64,000 bases of DNA from an uncultured Acidobacteriota bacterium (lineage in GTDB: Bacteria; Acidobacteriota; Vicinamibacteria; Vicinamibacterales; CAVVIG01). Positions within the stretch are counted from its first letter, which is position 1; every line of letters begins with the position of its first letter. The notes beneath the pieces were generated by a model that worked only from the letters and a program-made list of their open reading frames with translations, was not told the DNA's origin and ran no database searches. Made by a program: the position numbers and the translations under genes. Shown one piece after another: positions 478 through 38,503 of this stretch. The stretch is taken from positions 607,537-671,536 of the forward strand of contig CAVXGU010000004.1 in NCBI GenBank assembly GCA_963761615.1. Direction: 5' to 3'.

Positions 478-1881
478 ATGGAAGGTTCGAAGGGGACGGG
501 CTGGAGGGGCATGTGGCAGGCCGGCTTCGTGTCGGCAGCCGCGCTGTGCATGGCCGCGCCAGCCCTGGCGGCGGGCGCGCCGCCGACCGTGACGTTCACC
601 AAGGACGTCGCGCCGATTCTGCAGGCGAAGTGTCAGGACTGCCACCAGCCTGGATCCATCGCACCGATGTCGCTCATGACGTACGAGGAGACCCGTCCGT
701 GGGTCCGGGACATCCGTGAGCGGGTGTCGGAGCGCGAGATGCCGCCCTGGCACATCGACAAGTCGGTGGGCATCCAGAAGTTCAAGAACGACTTCTCGCT
801 GAGCGACGCGCAGATCGCGACGATCGTGAAGTGGGTGGACGAGGGCGCCCCGAAGGGCGACCCGGCCGACATGCCGCCGCCCAAGAAGATGCCGGATCCG
901 AACCAGTGGAAGGGCGTGATCGACGGCCTGGGCCAGCCCGACCTGGTCCTCACGTCGCCGTCGTGGACCGAGCCGCCGGTGCACCAGGACGTCTGGTGGC
1001 GGCCGGAGCAGCCGATTCCCATCACCGAGCCGCGCTGGGTGCGGGCGGTCGAGATCCGGCCCGCGACGACTCCCGGCCGGCGGATCTTCCATCACATCAT
1101 CGCCTACCGCGAGCTGAACGCGGACGAGGCCGACCAGGTGAACACGGGCACGGGCGGCGGGGGCCGGAACCTCGCACTGGTCGATGCCCTGGTCAACCGG
1201 CGCCCGCAGCTGATGGAGTGGGCGATCGGCAAGACCTACGACCTGTACCGCGCGGGCACCGGCAAGCGGATCGAACCGGGCGAGAAGATCTCGTGGGAGA
1301 TGCACATCCACGCCGTCGGCGAGCAGATCACGTCTGCCGCGCAGATTGCGATCTGGTTCTATCCGAAGGGCCAGGAGCCGAGCAAGGAGACCTATCTCGT
1401 CGGGTTCCAGGCGGTCGGCGACCGGACCCCGGGCAGCTCGGGTCTCGACATCCGGCCGAACAGCATCTCGATGTCCGAGGGCTTCACCACGCTCACGAAG
1501 AACGCGATTCTCGAGAACTTCCAGCCGCACATGCACCTGCGGGGGAAGGCGATGGAGCTCGAGGCCATCCTGCCGAACGGCCAGCACCAGGTCGTGAGCT
1601 TCGTGCGGAACTTCAACTTCAACTGGATGACGAACTACGTCTACGCCGACGATGCGGCGCCGGCGTTCCCGAAGGGGACGATCATCCACGTGACCGCCTG
1701 GTACGACAACACGGCGGGGAACCGGAACAACCCCGATCCGAACCAGTGGGTCGGCTACGGCAACCGGACGGTGGACGAGATGGGCCACGCGTGGGTGAAC
1801 GTGACGTATCTCACCGACCAGGAGTACGCCGCCTGGCTGAAGAAACACTCGAAGACTCCCAACCGGAGTCAGCAACAGTAG
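478..1881 (+). CDS. Secreted c-type heme (CxxCH) domain fused to a PHM/DBH-like type-2 copper monooxygenase-like core
   Basis: ATG 478 preceded by AAGGAGGG. Signal-peptide-like N-terminus (..AAALCMAAPALAAG). CQDCH at 631-645 followed by MPPWH. His/Met pattern HH (1090-1095), HIH (1303-1311), HMH (1528-1536), Met in VDEMGH (1780-1782). Stop TAG 1879-1881. Confidence 0.9.
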   Translation: MEGSKGTGWRGMWQAGFVSAAALCMAAPALAAGAPPTVTFTKDVAPILQAKCQDCHQPGSIAPMSLMTYEETRPWVRDIRERVSEREMPPWHIDKSVGIQKFKNDFSLSDAQIATIVKWVDEGAPKGDPADMPPPKKMPDPNQWKGVIDGLGQPDLVLTSPSWTEPPVHQDVWWRPEQPIPITEPRWVRAVEIRPATTPGRRIFHHIIAYRELNADEADQVNTGTGGGGRNLALVDALVNRRPQLMEWAIGKTYDLYRAGTGKRIEPGEKISWEMHIHAVGEQITSAAQIAIWFYPKGQEPSKETYLVGFQAVGDRTPGSSGLDIRPNSISMSEGFTTLTKNAILENFQPHMHLRGKAMELEAILPNGQHQVVSFVRNFNFNWMTNYVYADDAAPAFPKGTIIHVTAWYDNTAGNRNNPDPNQWVGYGNRTVDEMGHAWVNVTYLTDQEYAAWLKKHSKTPNRSQQQ

Positions 1882-1894
1882 TCCAACGACGCGC

Positions 1895-1931
1895 GGGGCG
1901 CCGTCCTGCAGGGCGGCGCCCCGCCCTTTTT
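1895..1931 (+). terminator. Intrinsic terminator between the monooxygenase-like gene and its partner gene
   Basis: GGGGCGCCGTCC-tgca-GGGCGGCGCCCC stem-loop (1895-1922) followed by GCCC and TTTTT (1927-1931). Confidence 0.7.
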
Positions 1932-1953: not shown

Positions 1954-2850
1954 ATGAAGTCGGTGACGTGGGTACTCAGCGCAGCAGCAGTTTCGGCGAT
2001 GATGGTGGCGGCGGTGGCGGTGGTGGGCGCGCAGCAGTCGATCGTGTTGCCCGGTCAGCCGCATGCCGAGTTCGGTGACAGCATCACGCCCGCCTACGAG
2101 GGATGGTTCAACGCCCCCGATGGTTCGCAGAACTTCCTGTTCGGGTACTACAACCGCAACAGCAAACAGATCATCGACATTCCTGTCGGCCCGAACAACA
2201 ACGTCCAGCCCGGCGGGCCCGACCTCGGCCAGCCGACACACTTCCTGACCGGCCGCCAGTGGGGCCTCTTCGTCATCCCCGCGCCGAAGGGCTACACGCT
2301 GCAGGACAAGCCGTTCGTCTGGTCGATCACGGCCAACGGGAAGCAGATCCAGATCCCGACGGACTTCAAGCCGGAGTTCAACGTCGACGTGCTCAACGAC
2401 GCGGAACATAACACGCCGCCGGTGGTCAAGTTCGACATGAAGGGCCAGACGGTCCAGGGACCGATCAACACCTCGTTCGATGAGACGGCGACGGTCGGCA
2501 AGCCGATGGATCTTCCGATCTCGGCGACCGACGACAACATCTACACGAGCGGCAGCAATGCCCCGCGCTCGCGGCTCGGCGATCCCGTCCGGTTCAGATG
2601 GATTCTGTACCGCGGCCCCGCCGACCCGACCTTTGCGAAGTCGACGCCGAAGTTCATGCTCACGAGCGGCGGCGACACCATCGGCAAGCCAGTGTCCGGC
2701 AAGAGCGACACGACCGTCACCTTCCCGCAGGCAGGCGAGTACTGGCTGCAGCTGACCGCGAACGACTACTCGGGGCCCGGCGGCACCGGATCCGGGGCCG
2801 CGGGCTGCTGCTGGACCAACACGCTCGTGAAGGTCAAGGTCGCTCCGTAG
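1954..2850 (+). CDS. Secreted hypothetical protein, conserved partner of the heme/copper enzyme; C-terminal CCW motif
   Basis: ATG 1954 with GGGAAGG upstream. Signal peptide (..VAAVAVVGAQQ). No catalytic motif recognised. The second half looks PKD/Ig-like (GEYWLQLTANDYSG). Ends ..AAGCCWTNTLVKVKVAP. Paralog at 34832..35716. Confidence 0.85.
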   Translation: MKSVTWVLSAAAVSAMMVAAVAVVGAQQSIVLPGQPHAEFGDSITPAYEGWFNAPDGSQNFLFGYYNRNSKQIIDIPVGPNNNVQPGGPDLGQPTHFLTGRQWGLFVIPAPKGYTLQDKPFVWSITANGKQIQIPTDFKPEFNVDVLNDAEHNTPPVVKFDMKGQTVQGPINTSFDETATVGKPMDLPISATDDNIYTSGSNAPRSRLGDPVRFRWILYRGPADPTFAKSTPKFMLTSGGDTIGKPVSGKSDTTVTFPQAGEYWLQLTANDYSGPGGTGSGAAGCCWTNTLVKVKVAP

Positions 2851-2934
2851 CGCACCCCTCCAGGCCACCCGGTCGCGTCCCGCGCGGCCGGGCGGTTGTC
2901 TTCCGATCGCCGGTCGAATAGCATCGCGGGATCC

Positions 2935-4185
2935 GTGCTGTTCGACCAGCCCGCCTTCCTCTTCGTCTTCCTGCCGATCGTCCTGGCGGCCTTCTATCTC
3001 GCGCTGCTGGTGGAGCGATTGCCCAGGCGGTGGTTCGGCTGGGCGTCGGAGGCGAGCACCTGGGTGCTGGTCGGCGCCGGCGCGTACTTCGTCTGGGCGG
3101 GCGGTCAGGCGTTCCTCGCGCTCCCGGGGTCGGCGCCGGCGTTCGCGCCGGCCGGGGCCCTCGTGCTCTTCTGCCTCGTCGTCTCGTCGCTCGTCGATTC
3201 CTCACGCGGCGAGGCCACCTTCGACCGCTCGATCGACGTCACGCTGTACGTCCTGCAGTTCCCGTTGCTGGTCGCCGGGCCGATCATCCGCTTCAAGGAC
3301 TTCGCGTCGCAGCGCGCCCGGCGCGCCGTCGGCATGGGGCCCTTCACCTACGGCGTCCGGCGCGTCGTCACCGGACTGGTGAAGGCGGTCCTGGTGGGCG
3401 GGACGCTGGCGGCGCCGGCCAACGCGATCTTCGCGCAGCCGTCGTGGCAGCTCACGACCGATGCCGCGTGGCTCGGCGCCGCGTGCTACGGACTGCAGAT
3501 CTACTTCCAGTTCTCGGGCTACTCGGACGTGGCCATCGGGCTCGGGCGGATGCTGGGCTTCCGCTATCCGGAGAACTTCCGCCGCCCCTATACCGCGGCG
3601 TCGATGCGGGACTTCTGGCGCCACTGGAACGTCACGCTCGTCCAGTGGCTGCGCGACTATCTCTATCTGCCGATCGCCGGACGCGACAACCCGACGCCGC
3701 GCCTCTATCTCAACATGGTCGTCGGGTTCTGTCTCATGGGCCTCTGGCACGGCGGCCGGTGGACCGTCGTGGCCTGGGCGGTCTACTCGAGCCTGTGGCT
3801 GGCGCTCGAGGCGATCGGCCTCGGCGATCGGATCGACCGCCTGCCGGTCGCCCTGCGGCACCTCTACGTGCTGTTCGTCGTCGGCGTGGGCTGGGTGATT
3901 CTGCGGCCCGGCGTCGAGGCAGGCACGCTGCGCTACCTCGCGATCATGGCGGGGGCCCAGGGCCGCGATTTTACGGCGCTCGGCTACATGACCCTGTGGC
4001 GCTGGGCGGCGCTCGCCACGGCGGTCCTGTTCGCCGGGCCGCTCGTGCCCTGGATCAGCCGCTGGAGGGTGAGCGTGGATGCCGCGACGACGTCGCTCCT
4101 GATGATGATGACGGCGATGGGGGTCCTGGCCTGGAAGAGCGGGACCGACTTCGTCGACTCGATTCGCCATCACGACCGGGCCTAG
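2935..4185 (+). CDS. MBOAT family O-acyltransferase (AlgI/DltB-like)
   Basis: Polytopic membrane protein with the typical N-terminus VLFDQPAFLFVFLPIV and a conserved His context GLWHGG. GTG 2935 is preferred; TTG 2896 is the longest in-frame start. Confidence 0.8.
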   Translation: MLFDQPAFLFVFLPIVLAAFYLALLVERLPRRWFGWASEASTWVLVGAGAYFVWAGGQAFLALPGSAPAFAPAGALVLFCLVVSSLVDSSRGEATFDRSIDVTLYVLQFPLLVAGPIIRFKDFASQRARRAVGMGPFTYGVRRVVTGLVKAVLVGGTLAAPANAIFAQPSWQLTTDAAWLGAACYGLQIYFQFSGYSDVAIGLGRMLGFRYPENFRRPYTAASMRDFWRHWNVTLVQWLRDYLYLPIAGRDNPTPRLYLNMVVGFCLMGLWHGGRWTVVAWAVYSSLWLALEAIGLGDRIDRLPVALRHLYVLFVVGVGWVILRPGVEAGTLRYLAIMAGAQGRDFTALGYMTLWRWAALATAVLFAGPLVPWISRWRVSVDAATTSLLMMMTAMGVLAWKSGTDFVDSIRHHDRA

Positions 4186-7570: not shown

Positions 7571-8580
7571 GCCGGTTCGCCCGCGTACACCTCGCGCGCG
7601 AAGTGGCAGAGCGACTGGTGTCCGGGCGCCAACTGGACGAGCGGCGGGAAGTCGCGATGACAGACGTCCTCGGCCCGGTCGCATCGGGGTGCGAACGGGC
7701 AGCCCGGCGGCAGGTGGGCGACATCAGGCGGCAGGCCCGGGATCTGGTGCAGATCCCGTCCGGCAGGTTCCGAGGGGTCCGGCACCGACAGCAGAAGGCC
7801 AATGGTGTAGGGATTGCCGGGTCGCATGAAGAGTTCCCGGGTGGGAGCGCTCTCGAAGACGTGCCCCGCGTACATCACCAGGATGCGGTCGGCCATTCCG
7901 GCCACGACGCCGAGATCGTGGGTGATGAGGATGACGCTGCTGCCGGTCTCGCCCTTGAGGGTGCGGATCAGGTCCAGGATCTGGGCCTGAATGGTCACGT
8001 CCAGCGCCGTCGTCGGCTCGTCGGCAATGAGCAGTTCGGGGCGGCAGGCGAGCGCCATGGCGATCATGACGCGCTGGCGCATGCCGCCCGAGAACTGGTG
8101 CGGGTAGCCGTCGATGCGCGTCGCCGCGTCCGGAATCCCGACCGTCTCCAGCATGCGGATCGCGTGGGCGCGCGCCTGCGCCCTCGTGTGTCCCAGGTGC
8201 AGCCGGGTCACTTCGGCCAGCTGCGCCGAAATCCGCATGAACGGATTGAGGGACGTCATCGGGTCCTGGAAGATCATCGCGATCCGCTTGCCGCGGACCT
8301 TGCGCATCGCTTCGTCCTGGAGCGTCAGGAGGTTCACGCCGTCGAAGACGATCTCGCCGCCGACGATGCGGCCGGGAGGCGAGGGGATGAGCCGGAGGAT
8401 GGAGAGGCTGGTCACCGACTTTCCCGAGCCCGACTCGCCGACGATGCCGAGGGTCTCGCCGCGGTTGAGGTCGAAGCTCACGCCATCCACGGCTTTGGCG
8501 GTCTGACCTTCCTCGTCGAACCACGTCCGCAGACCCTTGACGCTCAGCAGGGCTGCCGGCGCCGATAACGCGTCGGTCAT
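7567..8580 (-). CDS. Oligopeptide/dipeptide ABC transporter ATP-binding protein (OppD/DppD type)
   Basis: [29 protein letters not shown]-terminal [10 protein letters not shown]. Confidence 0.9.
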
Positions 8581-9528
8581 CTAGCCCCTCCTCATCTGCG
8601 GGTCCAGGGCGTCGCGCAGGCCGTCGCCGAGGAAGTTCAACGAGACGAGCGTCAGGGCCATCGTCAAGCCCGGGAAGATCAGCTGCCACGGGAAGACGGC
8701 GATGTTCTGGATGCCGTCGGCGGACAGGCTGCCCCACGAGGCGAGCGGCGCCTGCACGCCGAGGCCCAGAAACGACAGGAACGCCTCGAGCAGCATGACC
8801 GACGGCACGGTGAGGGTCGCGTAGACGACGACCGGCCCGAGCGCATTCGGAATCAGGTGGCGGAGGACGATCTTCGGTGCCGATACGCCGGTGGCGCGCG
8901 CGGCCAGCACGAACTCGAGCGACTTGAGCGACATCACCTGCCCGCGCACGATACGCGCCATCGTGAGCCAGGAGACCGCGCCGAGCGCGACGAACAGCAG
9001 CACGAGCTGTCCGAACGGGGACTGGCCGCCGAAGAACGCCAGGAGGACGATGACGACCATCATGTAGGGAATGGCGTACAGCACGTCGACGATCCGCATC
9101 ATGATCTCGTCGACGCGGCCGCCCGCGTAGCCGGCCGTCGCGCCGAACGCAATCCCGATGACGAGGGAGACGAGCGTCGAGATGATCCCGACCATCAGCG
9201 AGATGCGCCCGCCGATGAGCACGCGGGCGAGCAGGTCGCGTCCAGCCGTGTCGGTGCCCATCGGATGCGTCCAGGAGAAGCCGCCGTCGGGTCCGGTAAA
9301 CGGCGCCATCGCCTTGATGAGGGACAGGTCCGTCGGGATGTAGTCGTACGTATATCCGGTCGTGCGCGCGATGATCGGCGGGCCCAGGAGGCATCCGACG
9401 ACCATGGTGGTCACCACCCACAGACCGAACATCGCGAGCCGGTTGCGCTTCAGCCGCCGCCAGGCGTCGCGCCAGAGCGAGGTGCCGCCGGCGGCATCGG
9501 CCACCGTGACCAAGTCGTCCGCCGCCAT
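8581..9528 (-). CDS. Peptide ABC transporter permease (OppC/DppC type)
   Basis: Starts MAADDLVTV.. at 9528 (aa 306 of the 620-aa ORF), ATGA overlap with the upstream permease stop. Typical GTDxxGRDLLARV and binding-protein-dependent transport motifs. Confidence 0.85.
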   Translation of the reverse strand: MAADDLVTVADAAGGTSLWRDAWRRLKRNRLAMFGLWVVTTMVVGCLLGPPIIARTTGYTYDYIPTDLSLIKAMAPFTGPDGGFSWTHPMGTDTAGRDLLARVLIGGRISLMVGIISTLVSLVIGIAFGATAGYAGGRVDEIMMRIVDVLYAIPYMMVVIVLLAFFGGQSPFGQLVLLFVALGAVSWLTMARIVRGQVMSLKSLEFVLAARATGVSAPKIVLRHLIPNALGPVVVYATLTVPSVMLLEAFLSFLGLGVQAPLASWGSLSADGIQNIAVFPWQLIFPGLTMALTLVSLNFLGDGLRDALDPQMRRG

Positions 9529-10443
9529 CAGTAGCGGATTCTCGGGTCGATGAATCCGTAGGCGATATCGACCAGGAGGTTGAACAGCAGAATCGCGATC
9601 GAGGTGAAGGCTACGATCCCGAGAATGAGCGGCTCGTCGCGGTTGAGGTTCGCGTTGATGAAGTAATTGCCCAGCCCGGGCAGGGCGAAGATCCGTTCGA
9701 CGACCACCGTGCCGATGACGAGGAACGCGAGCGCGGGCCCGGAGAAGGAGACGACCGGGAGGAGGCCGCCGCGGAGCGCGTGGCGGACGATGATCGTCCG
9801 CTCGGGGAGTCCCTTGGCGCGGGCCGTGCGGATGTAGTTGGACCGGAGCACCTCGAGCATGCCCGATCGCGTCAGCCTCGCAATGTACGCCATGTAGAGG
9901 GCCGACAGGGTGAGCACGGGCAGGATGAGGTGCCGGTCGAGTCCCCAGCGCGCCGGGGGCAGCCAGAACCACGTGAGCGAGAAGACCAGGACCGAGGATC
10001 GGTCCGAGGACGAAGTTCGGCAGCGAAATTCCGATCATCGCCGCGGCCATCGAGGCGTAGTCCGTCCGGGAGTTCTGCCGCATCGCGGCGATCACGCCAG
10101 ACGGGATCCCGACCAGGAGCGCCAGCATGTACGCGAGCGTCCCGAGCGTGGCCGACACCGGCAGCGCCGCGACGAGGATGCCGTTGACCGACTGGCCCGT
10201 GTACTCGAGGGACGTACCGAAATCACCGCGTGCGGTGTTCGCGAGCATCTTCCCGTACTGCACGTACCACGGCCGGTCCAGGCCGTATTTCGCCCGGATG
10301 TTCTGCTCGACGGCGGGTGGCAGCGGCTTCTCGCCGGTGTAGAAGTTGCCGGGCGCCAGGCGAATCAGGCCCCACGTGAGCGAGAGGACGACGAAGACCA
10401 TGGGGACGGCGACGAGCAGCCGCCGGATGACGAACCGCAGCAC
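9528..10443 (-). pseudogene. Peptide ABC transporter permease (OppB/DppB type) with a single-base frameshift (or assembly indel)
   Basis: Length is 916 nt, not a multiple of 3. The N-terminal frame (10443 down) is sensible to ..SLPNFVLGPIL (codon 9996-9994). The continuation VLVFSLTWFWLPPARWGLDRHLILPVLTLSALYMAYIARLT is in the frame of ORF 9528..9917, starting at 9992. One extra base lies near 9993. Confidence 0.6.
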
Positions 10444-10444
10444 G

Positions 10445-12127
10445 TCAGGAGCCGGTCCCCGAGCCGGACGCGCCGTCCCACCTCGCCGGGTCGTGCTCGA
10501 TGTAGACGAACTTCCACGGATGCATCGTGAGCGGATTCGCGTACAGCCCCTTCACGTACGGCTTCTTCAGGAAGCTGGTCGACGTCGTCTGCAAGGGGAT
10601 GACGGGCTGCTCCTCGAGGAGGTGGCTTTCCGCCCTGGCGAGGAGCGCGTAGCGGCGCGCGGGATCGGGCTCCCGGTTGGCGTCCGACAGCATCTTCTGG
10701 TACGTGGCGTCGGTCCAGCCCGTGCCGTTGTCCGATCCCGCCGTCGAGAAGATGTTGAGAAACGTGTAGGGGTCCACGTAATCACCGACCCAGTCGCCTC
10801 GGGCGATGCCCTTGTACTGCAGCCTGGCCCGCGCGTCGAGGAACGTTCGCCACTCCACGTTCTTGAGCGGAACGGTCAGCCCCAGGTGCTGCTTCCACTG
10901 CGCCTGGACGAACTCCGCGATGTTCTTATTGCCGGCGCTCGTGTTGTAGGTGAGCTCGACCTCCGAGATCGGGAACGTCGAAGGGTCGTAGGCACCGTTC
11001 GCGTCGTGGTAGCCGGCCTCGACCAGCAGGGCGCGCGCGCGCGCCGGGTCGAACGGGTCGCCTTTCGGATAGGGATAGTCCTCGAAGACGCCCTGGGGCA
11101 CGAAGCCCGTCAATGGCTTCGTGTAGTGCAGGTAGTGCGCCAGACCCACCTTGTCGATCGCCGCGTTGAACGCCTTGCGGACGCGCACGTCGTTCATCGG
11201 CGGCCGCGTCGTGTTGAAGCAGTAGTAGGCGTTGGCGAGCTCGGGTGCGTCCTGGTAGTCGACGTACTGCCGCATGCCCTCGATCCATGCCTGCGGCACC
11301 ATGTGGTTGTACACGGCGTCCACCTCGCCCGCCTTGTACAGGTTCATCATCGTCGTCTGGTCTTCGACGGGGTAGAAGGTGATGCGCTGGAGCCGGACGC
11401 GCGCGGCGTCCCAGTACATCGGGTTCCTGACCACGGTCAGGACGTCGTAGGGCCGCCAGGTCTCGAGCGTAAACGGGCCGCTCGCGACGAGGTGGCCCGG
11501 GCGGGTCCAGGCGTCGCCGTACTGCTCGATCGCCTGGCGCGGCACCACCGCGAAGAACTGGTTGCACAGCAGGCCCGGCAGGAACGGCTCGGGCTCGCGC
11601 AGCCGGATCCGCAGCGTGTGCGGGCCGAGCGCATCCACCCCGAGGTCCTCCGCCCTGGCCTTTCCCGCGTTGTACGCCTCGGCGTTGACGATGCCGTAGG
11701 CCAGGTAGGCGTTCCGCGCGGCGAATGCGGGCGACAGGCCGCGGCGCAGGCTGTAGACGAAGTCGTCGGCCGTGATCGGCGTGCCGTCGGACCAGCGCGC
11801 GTCGGGACGGAGGTGGAAGGTGAATTCGGTGTTGTCGCCGTTGGCATCCCAGCTCGACGCGATGGCCGGAGTCGGGAGCGAGGTCTTCGGGTCGTAGCCG
11901 GTCAGACCCTCGAAGAGCGCCAGGTAGATCCGCGCCTCCGGCTGTCCCGTGCTCACCTGGGGATCGAGGGACTCCGGTTCGGGGCCCGAGATGTAGCGCA
12001 GTACCTGGCCGGCCGGCGGGTCCGTCTTGCCGAAGTACCGGCCGGTGCCCGCGGCGGCCGTGCAGCCGGCCAGGGCCACGGCGGGCAGCGCCATCGCGGC
12101 GAGGAGCCAGGGCGTCGACGCTCGCAT
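10445..12127 (-). CDS. ABC transporter substrate-binding lipoprotein, family 5 (peptide/nickel)
   Basis: Signal plus lipobox ..LPAVALAGC. Family-5 SBP length and sequence. ATG 12127 has GAGGG 4 nt upstream; the alternative ATG is 12148. Confidence 0.85.
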   Translation of the reverse strand: MRASTPWLLAAMALPAVALAGCTAAAGTGRYFGKTDPPAGQVLRYISGPEPESLDPQVSTGQPEARIYLALFEGLTGYDPKTSLPTPAIASSWDANGDNTEFTFHLRPDARWSDGTPITADDFVYSLRRGLSPAFAARNAYLAYGIVNAEAYNAGKARAEDLGVDALGPHTLRIRLREPEPFLPGLLCNQFFAVVPRQAIEQYGDAWTRPGHLVASGPFTLETWRPYDVLTVVRNPMYWDAARVRLQRITFYPVEDQTTMMNLYKAGEVDAVYNHMVPQAWIEGMRQYVDYQDAPELANAYYCFNTTRPPMNDVRVRKAFNAAIDKVGLAHYLHYTKPLTGFVPQGVFEDYPYPKGDPFDPARARALLVEAGYHDANGAYDPSTFPISEVELTYNTSAGNKNIAEFVQAQWKQHLGLTVPLKNVEWRTFLDARARLQYKGIARGDWVGDYVDPYTFLNIFSTAGSDNGTGWTDATYQKMLSDANREPDPARRYALLARAESHLLEEQPVIPLQTTSTSFLKKPYVKGLYANPLTMHPWKFVYIEHDPARWDGASGSGTGS

Positions 12128-27763: not shown

Positions 27764-27779
27764 GTATATAGGCTACCAC

Positions 27780-28080
27780 GGGTGCCGGGCGCCAGGCACC
27801 AGGTGCCAGGTGCGCGTGCCGGGGTGCCAGGTGCCGGGTGCCGGGTGCCGGAGTGCGTGATGCCGGGGTACGTGGTGCCCGGTGCCCGGCGCGTGGTGCG
27901 GGTGCGGGGTGCCCGATGCGGGGTGAGGTGCGCCACCCGGCATCCGGCACGGGGTACGGCACCCCGCACCCTGCACCCGGCATCTGGCACCGGGCACGGC
28001 ACCCCGCACCCTGCACCCGGCACCTGGCACCTGGTGCCCGGCACCCGCACCCGGCACGCGGTGCCTGGCGCCCGGCACCC
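27780..28080. repeat. ~300-bp imperfect palindrome built from GGTGCC(G/A)GG / CCGGCACC units, with 21-nt perfect terminal inverted repeats
   Basis: GGGTGCCGGGCGCCAGGCACC at 27780-27800 is the exact reverse complement of 28060-28080. The left half is G-strand units and the right half is C-strand units; the centre is near 27930. An internal 40-bp direct repeat lies at 27956-27995 / 27996-28035. Confidence 0.85.
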
Positions 28081-28081
28081 G

Positions 28082-33305: not shown

Positions 33306-34730
33306 ATGACTGGTACACGGAAAGGGTGGCGCATCGCCCGGACGAGCGTGGCGGCGCTCGGCGCCATCGCCACGATGGCAGTACCGGCCCTGGCGGCGGA
33401 CGGCGCCGCCGCACAGGTCACGTTCAGCAAGGACATCGCGCCGATCTTCCAGGCGAAATGCCAGGACTGTCATCAGCCGAACTCGATTGCGCCGATGTCG
33501 CTCATCACGTACCAGGAGGCGCGGCCGTGGGCTCGCGACATCCGTGAGCGCGTGGCGGCGCACCAGATGCCGCCCTGGCACATCGACAAGAGCGTCGGGA
33601 TCCAGAAGTTCAAGAACGACATGTCGCTCACCGATGAGCAGGTCGACACGATCGTGCGCTGGGTCGACGGCGGCGCGCCCCAGGGCGATCCGAAGGATAT
33701 CCCGCCGGCCAAGCCGATCACGACGACGAACGAGTGGCGCGGCCAGATGGACGGCTTCGGGCCGCCGGACCTGGTCGTCCGCGCCGACGAGTACATGATG
33801 CCGGCCGCCCATCAGGACGTCTGGTGGCGTCCGATGAGCGAGATTCCCATCAGCGAGCCTCGCTGGGTCAAGATGGTCGAGATCCGGCCGACCAGCCTTC
33901 AGGCCCGCAAGACCCTGCACCACTCGATCGCGTACCTCGTGCTGAACAACGACCCGGACGCCGTGAATACCGGGACCGGGGCGACGGCATCGGCCGGGCC
34001 CGCGGCGCGCGGCGCGGGCATCGACCCCGACGACCTCGTCAACCGCCGCCCGCAGCTCATGGAGTGGGCCATCGGCAAGGGCTACGACCTCTACCGCCCC
34101 GACACCGGCAAGCTGCTGGTCCCGGGCGAGAAGATCTCGTGGGACGAGCACATTCACGCCGCGGGCGAGGACACGTCGACGGGCTCCGAGATCGGCATCT
34201 GGTTCTACCCGAAAGGCCAGGAGCCGCGTCACCGCAGCTACCTCGTGGGCTTCACCGGCATTCGGCGCGCGCCGGGCGCGCCCGCTCTCGACATCCCGCC
34301 GAACTCGATCGCCTACACGGAAGGGTTCACTCTGCTCAGGGAGAACACCCTCATCGAGAACTTCCAGCCGCACTTCCACCTGCGCGGCAAGGCGATGCAG
34401 GTCGAGGCGATCCTGCCCAACGGCACGACGCAGATCGTCAGCTACGTGGGCAACTTCAACTTCAACTGGATGACCAACTACATCTACGCCGACGATGCGG
34501 CGCCGGTGTTCCCGAAGGGGACGATCATCCACGTCACCGCGTGGTACGACAACACCCGCGCGAACAAGAACAACCCCGACCCCGACCAGTGGGTCGGCTA
34601 CGGCGACCGCACCGTGGACGAGATGGCGCACGCGTGGATGAACGTCACGTACCTCTCGGACCAGGAGTACCAGCAGCTGATCGCCGAGCGCAAGGCGAAG
34701 TCCGCGTCGGGATCCCAGCAGCAGCAGTAG
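33306..34730 (+). CDS. Second full-length secreted heme-c / PHM-like copper monooxygenase-like protein (paralog of 478..1881)
   Basis: ATG 33306 after GGGGAGGGGA. Signal peptide. CQDCH (33459-33473), MPPWH, LHHSIAY, EHIHAAG, QPHFHLRGKAM, VDEMAHAW all conserved. Roughly two-thirds identical to 478..1881 by eye. Confidence 0.9.
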   Translation: MTGTRKGWRIARTSVAALGAIATMAVPALAADGAAAQVTFSKDIAPIFQAKCQDCHQPNSIAPMSLITYQEARPWARDIRERVAAHQMPPWHIDKSVGIQKFKNDMSLTDEQVDTIVRWVDGGAPQGDPKDIPPAKPITTTNEWRGQMDGFGPPDLVVRADEYMMPAAHQDVWWRPMSEIPISEPRWVKMVEIRPTSLQARKTLHHSIAYLVLNNDPDAVNTGTGATASAGPAARGAGIDPDDLVNRRPQLMEWAIGKGYDLYRPDTGKLLVPGEKISWDEHIHAAGEDTSTGSEIGIWFYPKGQEPRHRSYLVGFTGIRRAPGAPALDIPPNSIAYTEGFTLLRENTLIENFQPHFHLRGKAMQVEAILPNGTTQIVSYVGNFNFNWMTNYIYADDAAPVFPKGTIIHVTAWYDNTRANKNNPDPDQWVGYGDRTVDEMAHAWMNVTYLSDQEYQQLIAERKAKSASGSQQQQ

Positions 34731-34767
34731 CGAACGAGGTCAGACACGCCGGTTTCCAAACCGCGCG

Positions 34768-34800
34768 CGACGGGGCCGGGCCAGGCGCCCGGCTCCGTCG
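34768..34800 (+). terminator. GC-rich hairpin between the second enzyme gene and its partner (13-bp stem, no T-tract)
   Basis: CGACGGGGCCGGG-ccaggcg-CCCGGCTCCGTCG with one G-U wobble. Confidence 0.4.
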
Positions 34801-34831
34801 CGTCCATCCTTCCCAAGTGAGAGTTCTGCGC

Positions 34832-35716
34832 ATGAAGTCCTATCGATATCCGGTTCTGTTCCTGTGCGCGGCGGTCGCCGTGGCCGGCGTCGTGCTGTCG
34901 GCGCAGCGGCTGCCCATCGAGCCCCCCAAGGCCTTCGGCACCAGCATCACCGGCGCCTTCGAGGGCTGGTTCGACAACCCGGGCGGCGGCGGGCGCGGCT
35001 TCCTGGTCGGCTATCTCAATCGCAACCTGCAGACGGACATCGACGTCCCGATCGGGCCCAACAACCGCATCGAGCCCGGCGGCCCCGACCAGGGCCAGCC
35101 GACGCACTTCCTGCACGGGCGCCGCTACGGCATGTTCGTCGTGCCCGTGCCGAAGGACTTCACGTCGGCGGACCAGCGGCTGACGTGGACCATCGTGGTG
35201 AACGGCCAGAGCACCGTGATCCCGCTCCGCCTGCACCCCGACTACGTCGTGAGTCCGTTCACCGACGTCGCCGTCGGCAACACGCCGCCCGTCGTCAGGC
35301 TCTCCGAGCACGGGCCGACCAGCCAGGGGCCCGTCGCCGCGATCGCGACCGCGGAGTCGCGGACGACGAGCGTGTCGCAGCCGCTGACCCTCGAGGTCTG
35401 GGCGACCGACGATGCCAAGTACACGAGCGGCACGAACGCGCCGATGCGGAACCCGCCGCCGCCGGTCCGGATGCTCTGGTCGCAGTTCCGCGGAACGGGC
35501 AAGGTGACGTTCGGCGCGGCCGAGCCCACGTTCGAGATCACCAAGGGCGGTCAGGTGGATCAGCCGTTCGAGGGCAAAGCCACGACGACGGCGACATTCA
35601 GCGCGCCGGGCGACTACTTCCTCCACGCCACGGTGAACGACTACTCGGGTGACGGCGGTGGCGGCGAGGTGTGCTGCTGGACGACGGCCATGCTGAAGGT
35701 GACGGTGACTCCGTAG
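34832..35716 (+). CDS. Secreted hypothetical protein, paralog of 1954..2850 (CCW-motif partner)
   Basis: ATG 34832. Signal peptide. Conserved blocks GWF(N/D).P, IGPNN..(Q/E)PGGPD.GQPTHFL, TPPVV, NDYSG, ..EVCCWTTAMLKVTVTP. Confidence 0.85.
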   Translation: MKSYRYPVLFLCAAVAVAGVVLSAQRLPIEPPKAFGTSITGAFEGWFDNPGGGGRGFLVGYLNRNLQTDIDVPIGPNNRIEPGGPDQGQPTHFLHGRRYGMFVVPVPKDFTSADQRLTWTIVVNGQSTVIPLRLHPDYVVSPFTDVAVGNTPPVVRLSEHGPTSQGPVAAIATAESRTTSVSQPLTLEVWATDDAKYTSGTNAPMRNPPPPVRMLWSQFRGTGKVTFGAAEPTFEITKGGQVDQPFEGKATTTATFSAPGDYFLHATVNDYSGDGGGGEVCCWTTAMLKVTVTP

Positions 35717-35730
35717 CGGCTCGAGGTCAC

Positions 35731-35818
35731 GGGCTCAAGGCTCTCGGCTCTGGGCTCTCGGCTCTCGGCGGAACACGATGCAGTGCGACACCGTGGTCGG
35801 CCCGGAGCCCGGAGCCCG
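35731..35818. repeat. Inverted arrays of 7-nt tandem repeats (GGCTCTN x5, then CCCGGAG x2-3) between convergent genes
   Basis: GGGCTCA AGGCTCT CGGCTCT GGGCTCT CGGCTCT at 35731-35765 and CCCGGAG CCCGGAG CCCG at 35801-35818. The arms are partly complementary (GGGCTC/GAGCCC blocks). Confidence 0.7.
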
Positions 35819-37292: not shown

Positions 37293-37328
37293 GGTTCTCG
37301 AGGTTCTCGGGGTTCTCGAGGTTCTTCT
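37293..37328 (-). repeat. Array of four 9-nt tandem repeats (GGTTCTCGR on the + strand, i.e. YCGAGAACC on the - strand)
   Basis: GGTTCTCGA GGTTCTCGG GGTTCTCGA GGTTCTTCT at 37293-37328. Confidence 0.8.
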
Positions 37329-37566: not shown

Positions 37567-37606
37567 GATTGGGGCCAGGAATTCTCAGTGGACCCGAAAA
37601 CGCGGC

Positions 37607-37633
37607 GAGAACCCCGAGAACCCTGAGAACCCC
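37607..37633 (+). repeat. Array of three 9-nt tandem repeats GAGAACCCY, inverted relative to 37293..37328
   Basis: GAGAACCCC GAGAACCCT GAGAACCCC at 37607-37633. Confidence 0.8.
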
Positions 37634-37697
37634 GACTGCCACGCTGGCAATTGCGAAGGAGGCCGACGATAATCGCGCCTGGGGCCAGGAGCGTGCG

Positions 37698-38452: not shown

Positions 38453-38503
38453 GAGCACCGAGAACCCCGAGAACCCCGAGCACCCCGAGAACCCCGAGAA
38501 CCC
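38453..38503 (+). repeat. Array of six 9-nt-type tandem repeats GAG(A/C)ACCCC immediately upstream of the USP gene
   Basis: GAGCACC GAGAACCCC GAGAACCCC GAGCACCCC GAGAACCCC GAGAACCC at 38453-38503. Confidence 0.8.

Follow-up and report, generated by a model that had tools for sequence, protein, structure and literature searches.

INTRODUCTION

The two-copper monooxygenases typified by peptidylglycine α-hydroxylating monooxygenase (PHM) and dopamine β-hydroxylase (DBH) make amidated peptide hormones and noradrenaline in animals. How one of their two copper centers, CuH, is reduced and how electrons travel from one copper to the other are still debated. To our knowledge, PHM and DBH have been studied almost only in animals. 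Here, we describe a bacterial two-gene module that occurs twice, as module 1 and module 2, in a 64,000-nt stretch of DNA (positions 607,537 to 671,536 of contig CAVXGU010000004.1, assembly GCA_963761615.1; hereafter “the window”) from an uncultured Acidobacteriota bacterium of the Vicinamibacterales. Its first gene codes for an enzyme in which a cytochrome c domain precedes a domain that we place in the PHM/DBH fold, and its second gene codes for a separate protein, the partner. We think it probable that the two genes form an operon that encodes a periplasmic redox enzyme system, with a heme c/two-copper monooxygenase fusion as the enzyme and the partner as its accessory protein.

In the databases, these enzymes are labeled “hypothetical” or “mono/diheme cytochrome c family protein.” The family is large: Among the matches listed, we counted at least 7,000 clusters at 90% identity per query and at least about 2,100 clusters at 50% identity with an expect value (E) of 1e-30 or better. 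We found no description of the family in the literature on bacterial or cytochrome-fused PHM/DBH-like enzymes, in a search that barely covered subscription journals, and such an absence is no proof. While the duplication seen in the window is ordinary in itself, the identity of the duplicated unit is the interesting part.

RESULTS

Two diverged copies of the module lie in the window

A first-pass annotation of the window, made from the sequence alone, had pointed to two modules with the same gene order on the same strand and with a GC-rich hairpin in each spacer, and it had estimated by eye that the enzymes share about two-thirds of their residues and the partners fewer. All of these points were borne out. 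The four open reading frames (ORFs) and both hairpins are present (Table 1), and three of the four ORF lengths were matched by independent gene calls (P0391, 467 amino acids; P0001, 474; P0121, 294). Pairwise BLASTP yielded 64% identity for the enzymes (301/474, E = 0.0) and 47% for the partners (129/272, E = 8e-83), values that exclude chance similarity and agree with the estimates made by eye. The modules start 32.8 kb apart, with a gap of 30.5 kb between them, and a six-frame search of the window with hidden Markov models (HMMs) found no further copy of either gene. At the DNA level, the modules differ by 27 to 40%, and their GC content at third codon positions (GC3) is 0.89 to 0.90, as it is elsewhere in the genome. 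Enzyme copy 1 is preceded, at a distance of 7 nt, by an AAGGAGG ribosome-binding site, and scans for sigma-70-type promoters gave no match close to either module.

The enzyme joins a cytochrome c domain to a putative two-copper domain

Both enzymes open with a hydrophobic signal sequence that, as read by eye, ends in ALAA, which fits Sec export and attachment of the heme in the periplasm. The N-terminal 120 residues are helical, contain a CxxCH motif, and match cytochrome c families: Enzyme 2 scores 24.9 bits against Pfam Cytochrom_C (cut-off, 21.3), and enzyme 1 stays below the threshold. The CxxCH motif is that of heme c attachment, and M88 of the MPPW motif (residue numbers refer to enzyme 2) is the likely distal Met ligand.

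The C-terminal two-thirds of the enzyme we place in the PHM/DBH two-copper monooxygenase fold, judging from three independent lines: a predicted structure, a family profile, and Pfam matches in distant relatives. An AlphaFold2 (AF2) model of enzyme 2, built on 25 homologs, had human DBH (4zel) as its best fold match in Foldseek (E = 2.3e-10) and also matched about 30 PHM structures (E = 1e-9 to 1e-7, probability of 1.00), with template modeling (TM) scores of 0.4 to 0.53 normalized to PHM over ~315 aligned columns. At the sequence level, a search of Protein Data Bank (PDB) sequences with the single enzyme returned only a marginal cytochrome c match. A profile of 40 diverse relatives (30 to 49% identity), obtained from a search of 1.84 billion cluster representatives, again had DBH as its best match among the PDB sequences (4zel, E = 4.5e-9), together with PHM (E = 7e-9). 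The profile alignment pairs the His-His motif of the family with H107/H108 of PHM, the next conserved His with H172, and the HxH motif with H242/H244, all of which are among the CuH and CuM ligands of PHM (PMC12164859).

Conservation follows the same pattern. None of C52, C55, H56, M88, H205, H282, H356, and H358 varies among the 40 diverse members, conservation of H206 and M440 is 90% or higher, and both window enzymes have all candidate ligands for heme and copper. Three distant relatives, with the domain order cytochrome c, Cu2_monooxygen, and Cu2_monoox_C, exceed the cut-off of 23 bits for Pfam Cu2_monoox_C (P0377, 28.2; P0335, 23.8; P0334, 23.5). Because these relatives pass the Cu2_monoox_C threshold that the window enzymes miss, membership among the copper monooxygenases holds at the level of the superfamily.

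R240 of PHM holds the peptide substrate by a salt bridge to the carboxylate of its C-terminal glycine (PMC12164859). The family profile and both window enzymes have Gln at this position (FQPHxH), as does DBH, which argues that the enzyme is not a peptide-amidating PHM ortholog. We therefore rejected an assignment as PHM proper, and we likewise rejected one as DBH or tyramine β-monooxygenase proper because the family has a cytochrome c domain in place of the N-terminal DOMON domain.

The partner is predicted to be a two-domain β-sandwich protein

The partner has a signal peptide and, in its model (predicted local distance difference test, pLDDT, of 72), two all-β domains. In the main subfamily, the motifs EGW, Y.NRN, PGGPDxGQPTHF, ATDD, and NDYSG are invariant, as is a Gly-rich loop that is followed by Cys-Cys-Trp (CCW). 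Its fold matches in Foldseek are generic Ig-like proteins at a TM score of ~0.2, and of 26 members, 10 had a Pfam PKD match, in each case under the threshold (best E, 0.0087). The PDB sequences yielded no relative, whether searched with the single sequence or with the profile, and no match to CopC, PCuAC, CusF, or a SoxY-type carrier was seen in Pfam, NCBIfam, the PDB sequences, or the top 50 of Foldseek. We also considered the partner as a diverged copy of an enzyme domain and rejected this idea, since a profile-profile comparison showed no homology (probability of 0.6%).

One distant locus, L068, holds a second, very divergent enzyme-partner pair (8259-10468, minus strand) that is convergent to the main pair of the locus. 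Its partner has neither the Gly loop nor the CCW motif and keeps the N-terminal motifs, including GQPTHF. For this reason, the N-terminal domain is taken as the conserved core, and the Gly loop and CCW were downgraded as the core of partner function. Within the predicted N-terminal domain, the loop PGGPDxGQPTHF is the most conserved part of the partner.

Table 1. Positions in the window of the genes, motifs, and hairpins of modules 1 and 2.
Feature	Position	Strand	Description
Enzyme copy 1 (module 1)	478..1881	+	467 aa
Enzyme 1, signal peptide and monoheme cytochrome c domain	CxxCH 631..645, MPPW 739..750	+	sequence motifs
Enzyme 1, PHM/DBH-like two-copper domain	HH 1090..1095, HIHA H 1303.., HMH 1528..1536, DEM 1774..1782	+	
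Spacer hairpin 1	1893..1924	+	14-bp stem (13 GC pairs), 4-nt loop, then CCTTTTT; z = -3.25
Partner copy 1 (module 1)	1954..2850	+	298 aa
Partner 1 motifs	GQPTHF 2227..2244, NDYSG 2761..2775, CCW 2806..2814	+	signal peptide and two β-sandwich domains
Terminator-like hairpin after partner 1	2868..2892	+	11 pairs
Enzyme copy 2 (module 2)	33306..34730	+	474 aa
Enzyme 2, cytochrome c domain after signal peptide	C52-x-x-C55-H56 33459..33473, M88 33567	+	
Enzyme 2, PHM/DBH-like domain	H205 H206 33918..33923, H282 34149, H356/H358 34371..34379, M440 34623	+	
Spacer hairpin 2	34767..34801	+	15-bp stem (one G-U pair), 5-nt loop, no T-run; z = -2.91
Partner copy 2 (module 2)	34832..35716	+	294 aa
Partner 2 motifs	GQPTHF 35093..35110, NDYSG 35636..35650, Gly-rich loop, then C281 C282 W283 35672..35680	+	

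Enzyme and partner genes occur together

The first-pass annotation had taken the two genes for a functional pair rather than chance neighbors, and their occurrence elsewhere agrees with that view. Scanning one genome per species, we examined the best 80 of 527 enzyme-anchored loci, all of which came from Acidobacteriota (Vicinamibacterales, Bryobacterales, Terriglobia, and others). In 72 of them, the partner gene lies directly downstream on the same strand. One further locus (L040) has enzyme and partner in one continuous ORF, another (L013) shows the start of the partner at the contig end, five have contigs that end <200 bp from the enzyme, and one (L024) has 5.7 kb of downstream sequence without a partner. 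The partner was thus downstream in 74 of 75 informative loci. The reverse count, anchored on the partner in 80 metagenome loci, gave 69 with the enzyme immediately upstream, 1 with ~1 kb in between, and 10 that had no upstream sequence, i.e., an enzyme upstream on the same strand in all 70 informative loci. Partner-like genes were, accordingly, not generally found away from enzyme genes.

The unit consists of these two genes. Across ~165 loci, no third conserved gene was found, the commonest flank cluster being present in 26 loci in mixed positions and orientations, and the flanks of the two window modules are unrelated (MBOAT and GNAT genes after module 1, a fatty-acid desaturase gene before and an ABC-3 metal transporter gene after module 2), which argues for a self-contained two-gene operon. 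The MBOAT acyltransferase gene just downstream of module 1 (2896-4185, plus strand) has counterparts a few kilobases downstream of the module 1 orthologs L085 and L086, a partial synteny.

A number of loci depart from the standard arrangement. The orphan enzyme of L024 (5722-7398, plus strand), in the metagenome-assembled genome (MAG) gp6 AA46, is followed by an unrelated gene, and the same MAG has a normal pair (L041); the MAG NC_groundwater_58 has two enzyme-partner pairs (L062 and L082). With these two MAGs each holding more than one copy, several copies per genome are common. The continuous ORF of L040 (5962-8310, plus strand; 782 amino acids) keeps a segment like the signal peptide of the partner inside it and is either a natural fusion or the result of a lost stop codon or sequencing error. 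In L029 (8333-10432, plus strand) and L103 (1117-3228, plus strand), the next gene downstream of the partner codes for an enzyme paralog of ~700 amino acids, in which a cytochrome c domain is combined with a heavy-metal-binding domain (HMBD; Pfam E = 3e-10) and with a PHM-like domain that has lost the His-His ligands. This hints at a copper link in some lineages. Other paralogs, in L014 (8959-11142, minus strand) and L043 (324-2558, minus strand), have all copper ligands and C-terminal TPR repeats, with no adjoining partner, and in L001, a TPR protein follows the enzyme-partner pair.

The pair has been inherited as a unit

That the two genes diverged together as a unit, and that the modules are paralogs, had also been proposed in the first reading; both proposals held in an analysis of 122 nonredundant enzyme-partner pairs. 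Pairwise distances among enzymes and among partners were correlated (Pearson r = 0.75, a value reached by 0 of 2000 Mantel permutations), with the partner diverging ~1.6 times faster than the enzyme. The neighbor-joining trees of the two proteins were congruent as well: 58 of 119 bipartitions were common to both, whereas 500 permutations of the labels gave 0.17 on average and never more than 2. Because a common species history alone gives part of the distance correlation, the paralogs provide a sharper test. The module 1 clade was recovered in 200 of 200 bootstraps in the enzyme tree and likewise in the partner tree; copying and inheritance thus involved both genes of the pair together. Enzyme 1 has few close relatives, with ~7 clusters at ≥78% (78 to 89%) identity and then nothing above 68%; three of these, examined together with their neighboring genes (L085, L086, and L087), each show the enzyme and then the partner. 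Among the sampled pairs, no module 1 enzyme stood beside a module 2–type partner, and no module 2 enzyme beside a module 1–type partner.

The genomes of L085 and L086 also hold module 2 orthologs, L005 and L006, whose enzymes have 88 and 85% identity with enzyme 2. Both are found downstream of the respective module 1 orthologs, at distances of 117 and 75 kb, on the same strand and in the order seen in the window. Since both modules recur in the same order in two sister genomes, the two-gene unit was duplicated or acquired before the three genomes diverged. When rooted with the distant L068 pair, both trees placed the module 1 clade close to the root of the sampled family, with an ordinary root-to-tip length; this argues for an old paralog rather than a recent, accelerated copy, although neighbor joining with a distant outgroup is open to long-branch artifacts. 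As judged from these trees, module 1 is a small, early-branching lineage and module 2 an abundant, mainstream lineage of the Acidobacteriota.

For module 2, the two genes tell slightly different stories. The trio of module 2 orthologs was recovered in 200 of 200 bootstraps in the enzyme tree versus 72 of 200 in the partner tree. While enzyme 2 is closer to L005 and L006 than to L090 and L016 (75 to 76%), partner 2 is 65 to 67% identical to its presumed orthologs (L005, 67%; L006, 65%), compared with 73% for L090 and 70% for L016. Either the fast-evolving partner has changed at uneven rates, or partners were once exchanged.

It is also conceivable that module 1 did not arise as a duplicate of module 2 within the genome but was acquired horizontally, as a complete two-gene unit, from an unsampled lineage. 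The small size of its clade, the drop in identity beyond it, and its near-basal branching away from the module 2 trio (joined in only 0/200 and 5/200 bootstraps) would fit such a transfer, whereas its GC3 is that of the genome, an old local duplication would account for its position in all three genomes (on the same strand as module 2 and 31 to 117 kb upstream of it), and the branching itself comes from trees prone to the artifact named above. We regard a transfer as possible, if rather unlikely. In either case, duplication or transfer, the two genes moved together.

Both genes of both modules are under purifying selection

The ratio of nonsynonymous to synonymous substitution rates (dN/dS; Nei-Gojobori) was below 1 in every comparison, at 0.12 to 0.40 for the enzyme and 0.19 to 0.71 for the partner, where these ratios are biased upward because a GC3 of ~0.9 compresses dS. 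Within clades, the values for enzyme and partner were 0.15 and 0.19 for L005 versus L006, 0.16 and 0.42 for window module 2 versus L005, and 0.12 and 0.35 for window module 1 versus L087; only such within-clade values were used, module 1 versus module 2 being uninformative with dS compressed or saturated. By these estimates, both genes of both modules are under purifying selection, and the partner is less constrained.

We then looked at fixed differences between the copies, using 200 enzyme columns with a conservation of at least 95% among the sequences outside the module 1 clade. Ten of these differ in the module 1 clade, all conservatively: D→E, S→A, E→Q, G→A, T→S, V→L, Y→F, I→V, and A→G, and, as the tenth, F→M between the two CuM histidines. 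In the partner, 2 of 70 such columns differ. The largest differences between the modules are a 7-residue length change in the poorly modeled loop 213-262 and the overall divergence of the partner. With catalytic positions identical and fixed changes conservative, the comparison gave no sign of changed chemistry between the copies and no evidence for the different specificities that the first-pass annotation had suggested; a difference in substrate or regulation between modules 1 and 2 is possible.

Spacer hairpins accompany long spacers

The first-pass annotation had counted a spacer hairpin as part of the module architecture. This holds for both modules of the window and does not hold in general, since hairpins were seen only with long spacers. 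Among 135 enzyme-partner junctions, 68 overlap (mostly as a 4-nt stop/start), 32 have 0 to 20 nt between the genes, and 35 have more than 20 nt. There are 29 spacers longer than 40 nt. An uninterrupted helix of 8 bp or more is present in 24 of them, 15 fold better than shuffled sequences (z < -2), and 11 have a T-run; the hairpin sequences of different spacers are not alike. Being limited to junctions with a long spacer, the hairpin is a recurrent, lineage-specific addition, and translational coupling, as predicted from the reading frames, is the ancestral or common state of the junction.

Spacer hairpin 1 looks like an intrinsic terminator in its sequence features, having a GC-rich stem-loop and a T-run. 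Where a spacer hairpin is present, it would most plausibly act as a partial terminator or as a protector of the 3′ end, such that the enzyme message outlasts or outnumbers that of the partner. The hairpin behind partner 1 probably marks the end of operon 1. An Rfam search of the whole window gave no match at the gathering thresholds, and the spacer hairpins are thus not a known RNA element.

The window also contains intergenic repeats. At 27779-27925 and 27934-28081, two adjoining inverted heptamer arrays (CGGGTGC in ~21 copies and then CACCCGG in ~22 copies) could form a very long imperfect hairpin. Short intergenic tandem arrays lie at 35739-35769, 37293-37325, 37606-37635, and 38458-38503; a GGCTCTC array of 4.4 copies directly follows partner 2, and a 9-mer (GGTTCTCGA/CCGAGAACC) occurs in both orientations at three sites at ~37.3 to 38.5 kb.

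DISCUSSION

The gene pair described here probably encodes a periplasmic redox system in which a heme c domain and a two-copper domain share one polypeptide. We propose that the heme c domain would take up electrons from a periplasmic respiratory carrier and pass them to CuH (H205, H206, and H282) and then on to CuM (H356, H358, and M440), where O2 would be bound and a C-H bond of the substrate hydroxylated. The heme c domain would thus stand in for the ascorbate or the cytochrome b561/DOMON systems of the animal enzymes. Made together with the enzyme, and often translationally coupled to it, the partner would most likely be an obligate accessory subunit that could, for example, bind or present the substrate or stabilize the enzyme. 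The whole pair was duplicated or acquired as a unit long ago.

Several points weigh against this reading. In the two window enzymes, Pfam gave no match to a copper domain at E values up to 1, and NCBIfam, which has no model for these enzymes, assigned none of the four proteins to a family. The quality of the AF2 model is moderate, with a mean pLDDT of 65 and a disordered loop at 213-262. M440 lies outside the profile-aligned region, and its equivalence to M314 of PHM was therefore assigned from the conserved DEM motif and spacing only. The dN/dS values are only rough, given the compressed dS at such a GC3. The enzyme of L024 has no partner, and distant enzyme paralogs (TPR- or HMBD-fused, or standalone) have none either. 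Gene context, in the loci compared, yields no clue to the substrate. That the enzyme and the partner bind each other is an inference. Lastly, terminator-like hairpins stand between the genes in about a quarter of the loci, including both window modules; they make unequal expression possible, and a substoichiometric helper then fits as well as a subunit.

Such a helper could be a dedicated copper chaperone or maturation caddie in the manner of MelC1, which might load copper through His92 and the Cys-Cys-Trp motif. The partner is a predicted periplasmic β-sandwich protein with an invariant His and, in the main subfamily, a vicinal Cys pair and Trp; the spacer hairpins with T-runs could lower its expression relative to the enzyme; and in L029 as in L103, the gene after the partner codes for an HMBD-containing protein. 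However, no likeness of the partner in sequence or fold to CopC, PCuAC, CusF, or any known chaperone was found, the partner of L068 does without the Gly loop and CCW while its N-terminal motifs are kept, and the 4-nt overlaps at half of the junctions suggest equimolar synthesis. A copper caddie is hence an unlikely role for the partner, although it is one that deserves to be kept in mind.

More doubtful is the possibility that the enzyme is not an oxygenase at all and serves in electron transfer, as an oxidase or reductase of a small inorganic compound, or in copper handling. The substrate-binding residues of PHM are not kept, with R240 aligning with Gln; HMBD-fused paralogs with degenerate copper sites lie beside some modules; and no catabolic genes are conserved nearby. 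Yet the full HH/H/HxH/M set of PHM and DBH is conserved across distances of 30% identity, and the Gln in the place of R240 is shared with DBH, an oxygenase. We judge a nonoxygenase function improbable and retain the monooxygenase assignment.

It is very improbable, in our view, that the partner is instead the substrate of the enzyme, with its Cys-Cys-Trp oxidized to a cofactor or crosslink and the modified partner as the functional product. PHM-type enzymes do act on peptides, enzyme and partner are strictly coinherited, and CCW is invariant in the main subfamily, where it immediately follows a flexible Gly-rich loop that is modeled with low confidence. Against this stand the L068 pair, which is kept without CCW or Gly loop, the N-terminal domain as the most conserved part, and a layout that has no leader/core peptide arrangement; the idea is speculation. 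Chance adjacency or an assembly artifact as the source of the repeated pair can practically be dismissed, given the BLASTP scores, the pairing in more than 140 independent genome and metagenome loci, and a DNA divergence between the copies that speaks against a collapsed or duplicated assembly.

A stronger version of our proposal, which we hold only tentatively and consider doubtful as it stands, is that the family forms a new class of periplasmic C-H hydroxylases in which the respiratory chain drives a two-copper site through the fused heme c, with the partner complex being required and the partner either presenting the substrate or bearing a modified Cys-Cys-Trp. If true, such a respiratory-driven hydroxylase could be an unrecognized and quantitatively important oxidative step in the turnover of soil organic matter: The operon is found in thousands of sequences of soil Acidobacteria, from some of the most abundant soil bacteria. 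For the study of PHM/DBH chemistry, a large bacterial branch with a built-in heme c donor would offer a natural, ascorbate-independent version that can be expressed for dissection. The window modules and the two sister genomes with both copies provide a ready comparison of two diverged enzyme-partner pairs.

Among known systems, PHM and DBH are the closest. With PHM, the enzyme shares two β-sandwich domains (Foldseek probability, 1.0) and the order and approximate spacing of the CuH and CuM ligands, with the profile aligning five of these six residues. It differs from PHM in being bacterial and predicted to be periplasmic, in its N-terminal c-type heme domain, in an insertion of ~50 residues between the HH motif and the third His, in the Gln for R240, and in the lack of a PAL domain, and it has a dedicated partner gene; overall identity is ~10%. 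Within the group of DBH, tyramine β-monooxygenase, and MOXD1, DBH is the best match of both profile and fold and has Gln at the R240 position as the family does, but DBH has an N-terminal DOMON domain and a C-terminal dimerization domain and uses ascorbate, where the family enzyme has an N-terminal cytochrome c.

Two other systems are analogous in function or layout. In the pairing of cellobiose dehydrogenase (CDH) with lytic polysaccharide monooxygenase (LPMO), a heme domain feeds a copper monooxygenase, and no small-molecule reductant is needed; the folds are unrelated, however, and CDH uses heme b and a separate partner enzyme, whereas here a heme c would be fused to a two-copper domain. 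The tyrosinase MelC2/MelC1 of Streptomyces likewise forms a two-gene operon of a copper enzyme and a small dedicated helper, although there is no homology: MelC1 is encoded upstream and has an SH2-like fold, whereas the partner described here is encoded downstream and is predicted to have two Ig-like domains. What sets the family apart from PHM and DBH is the combination of a fused c-type cytochrome, a bacterial periplasmic setting, and an obligatory, previously undescribed partner.

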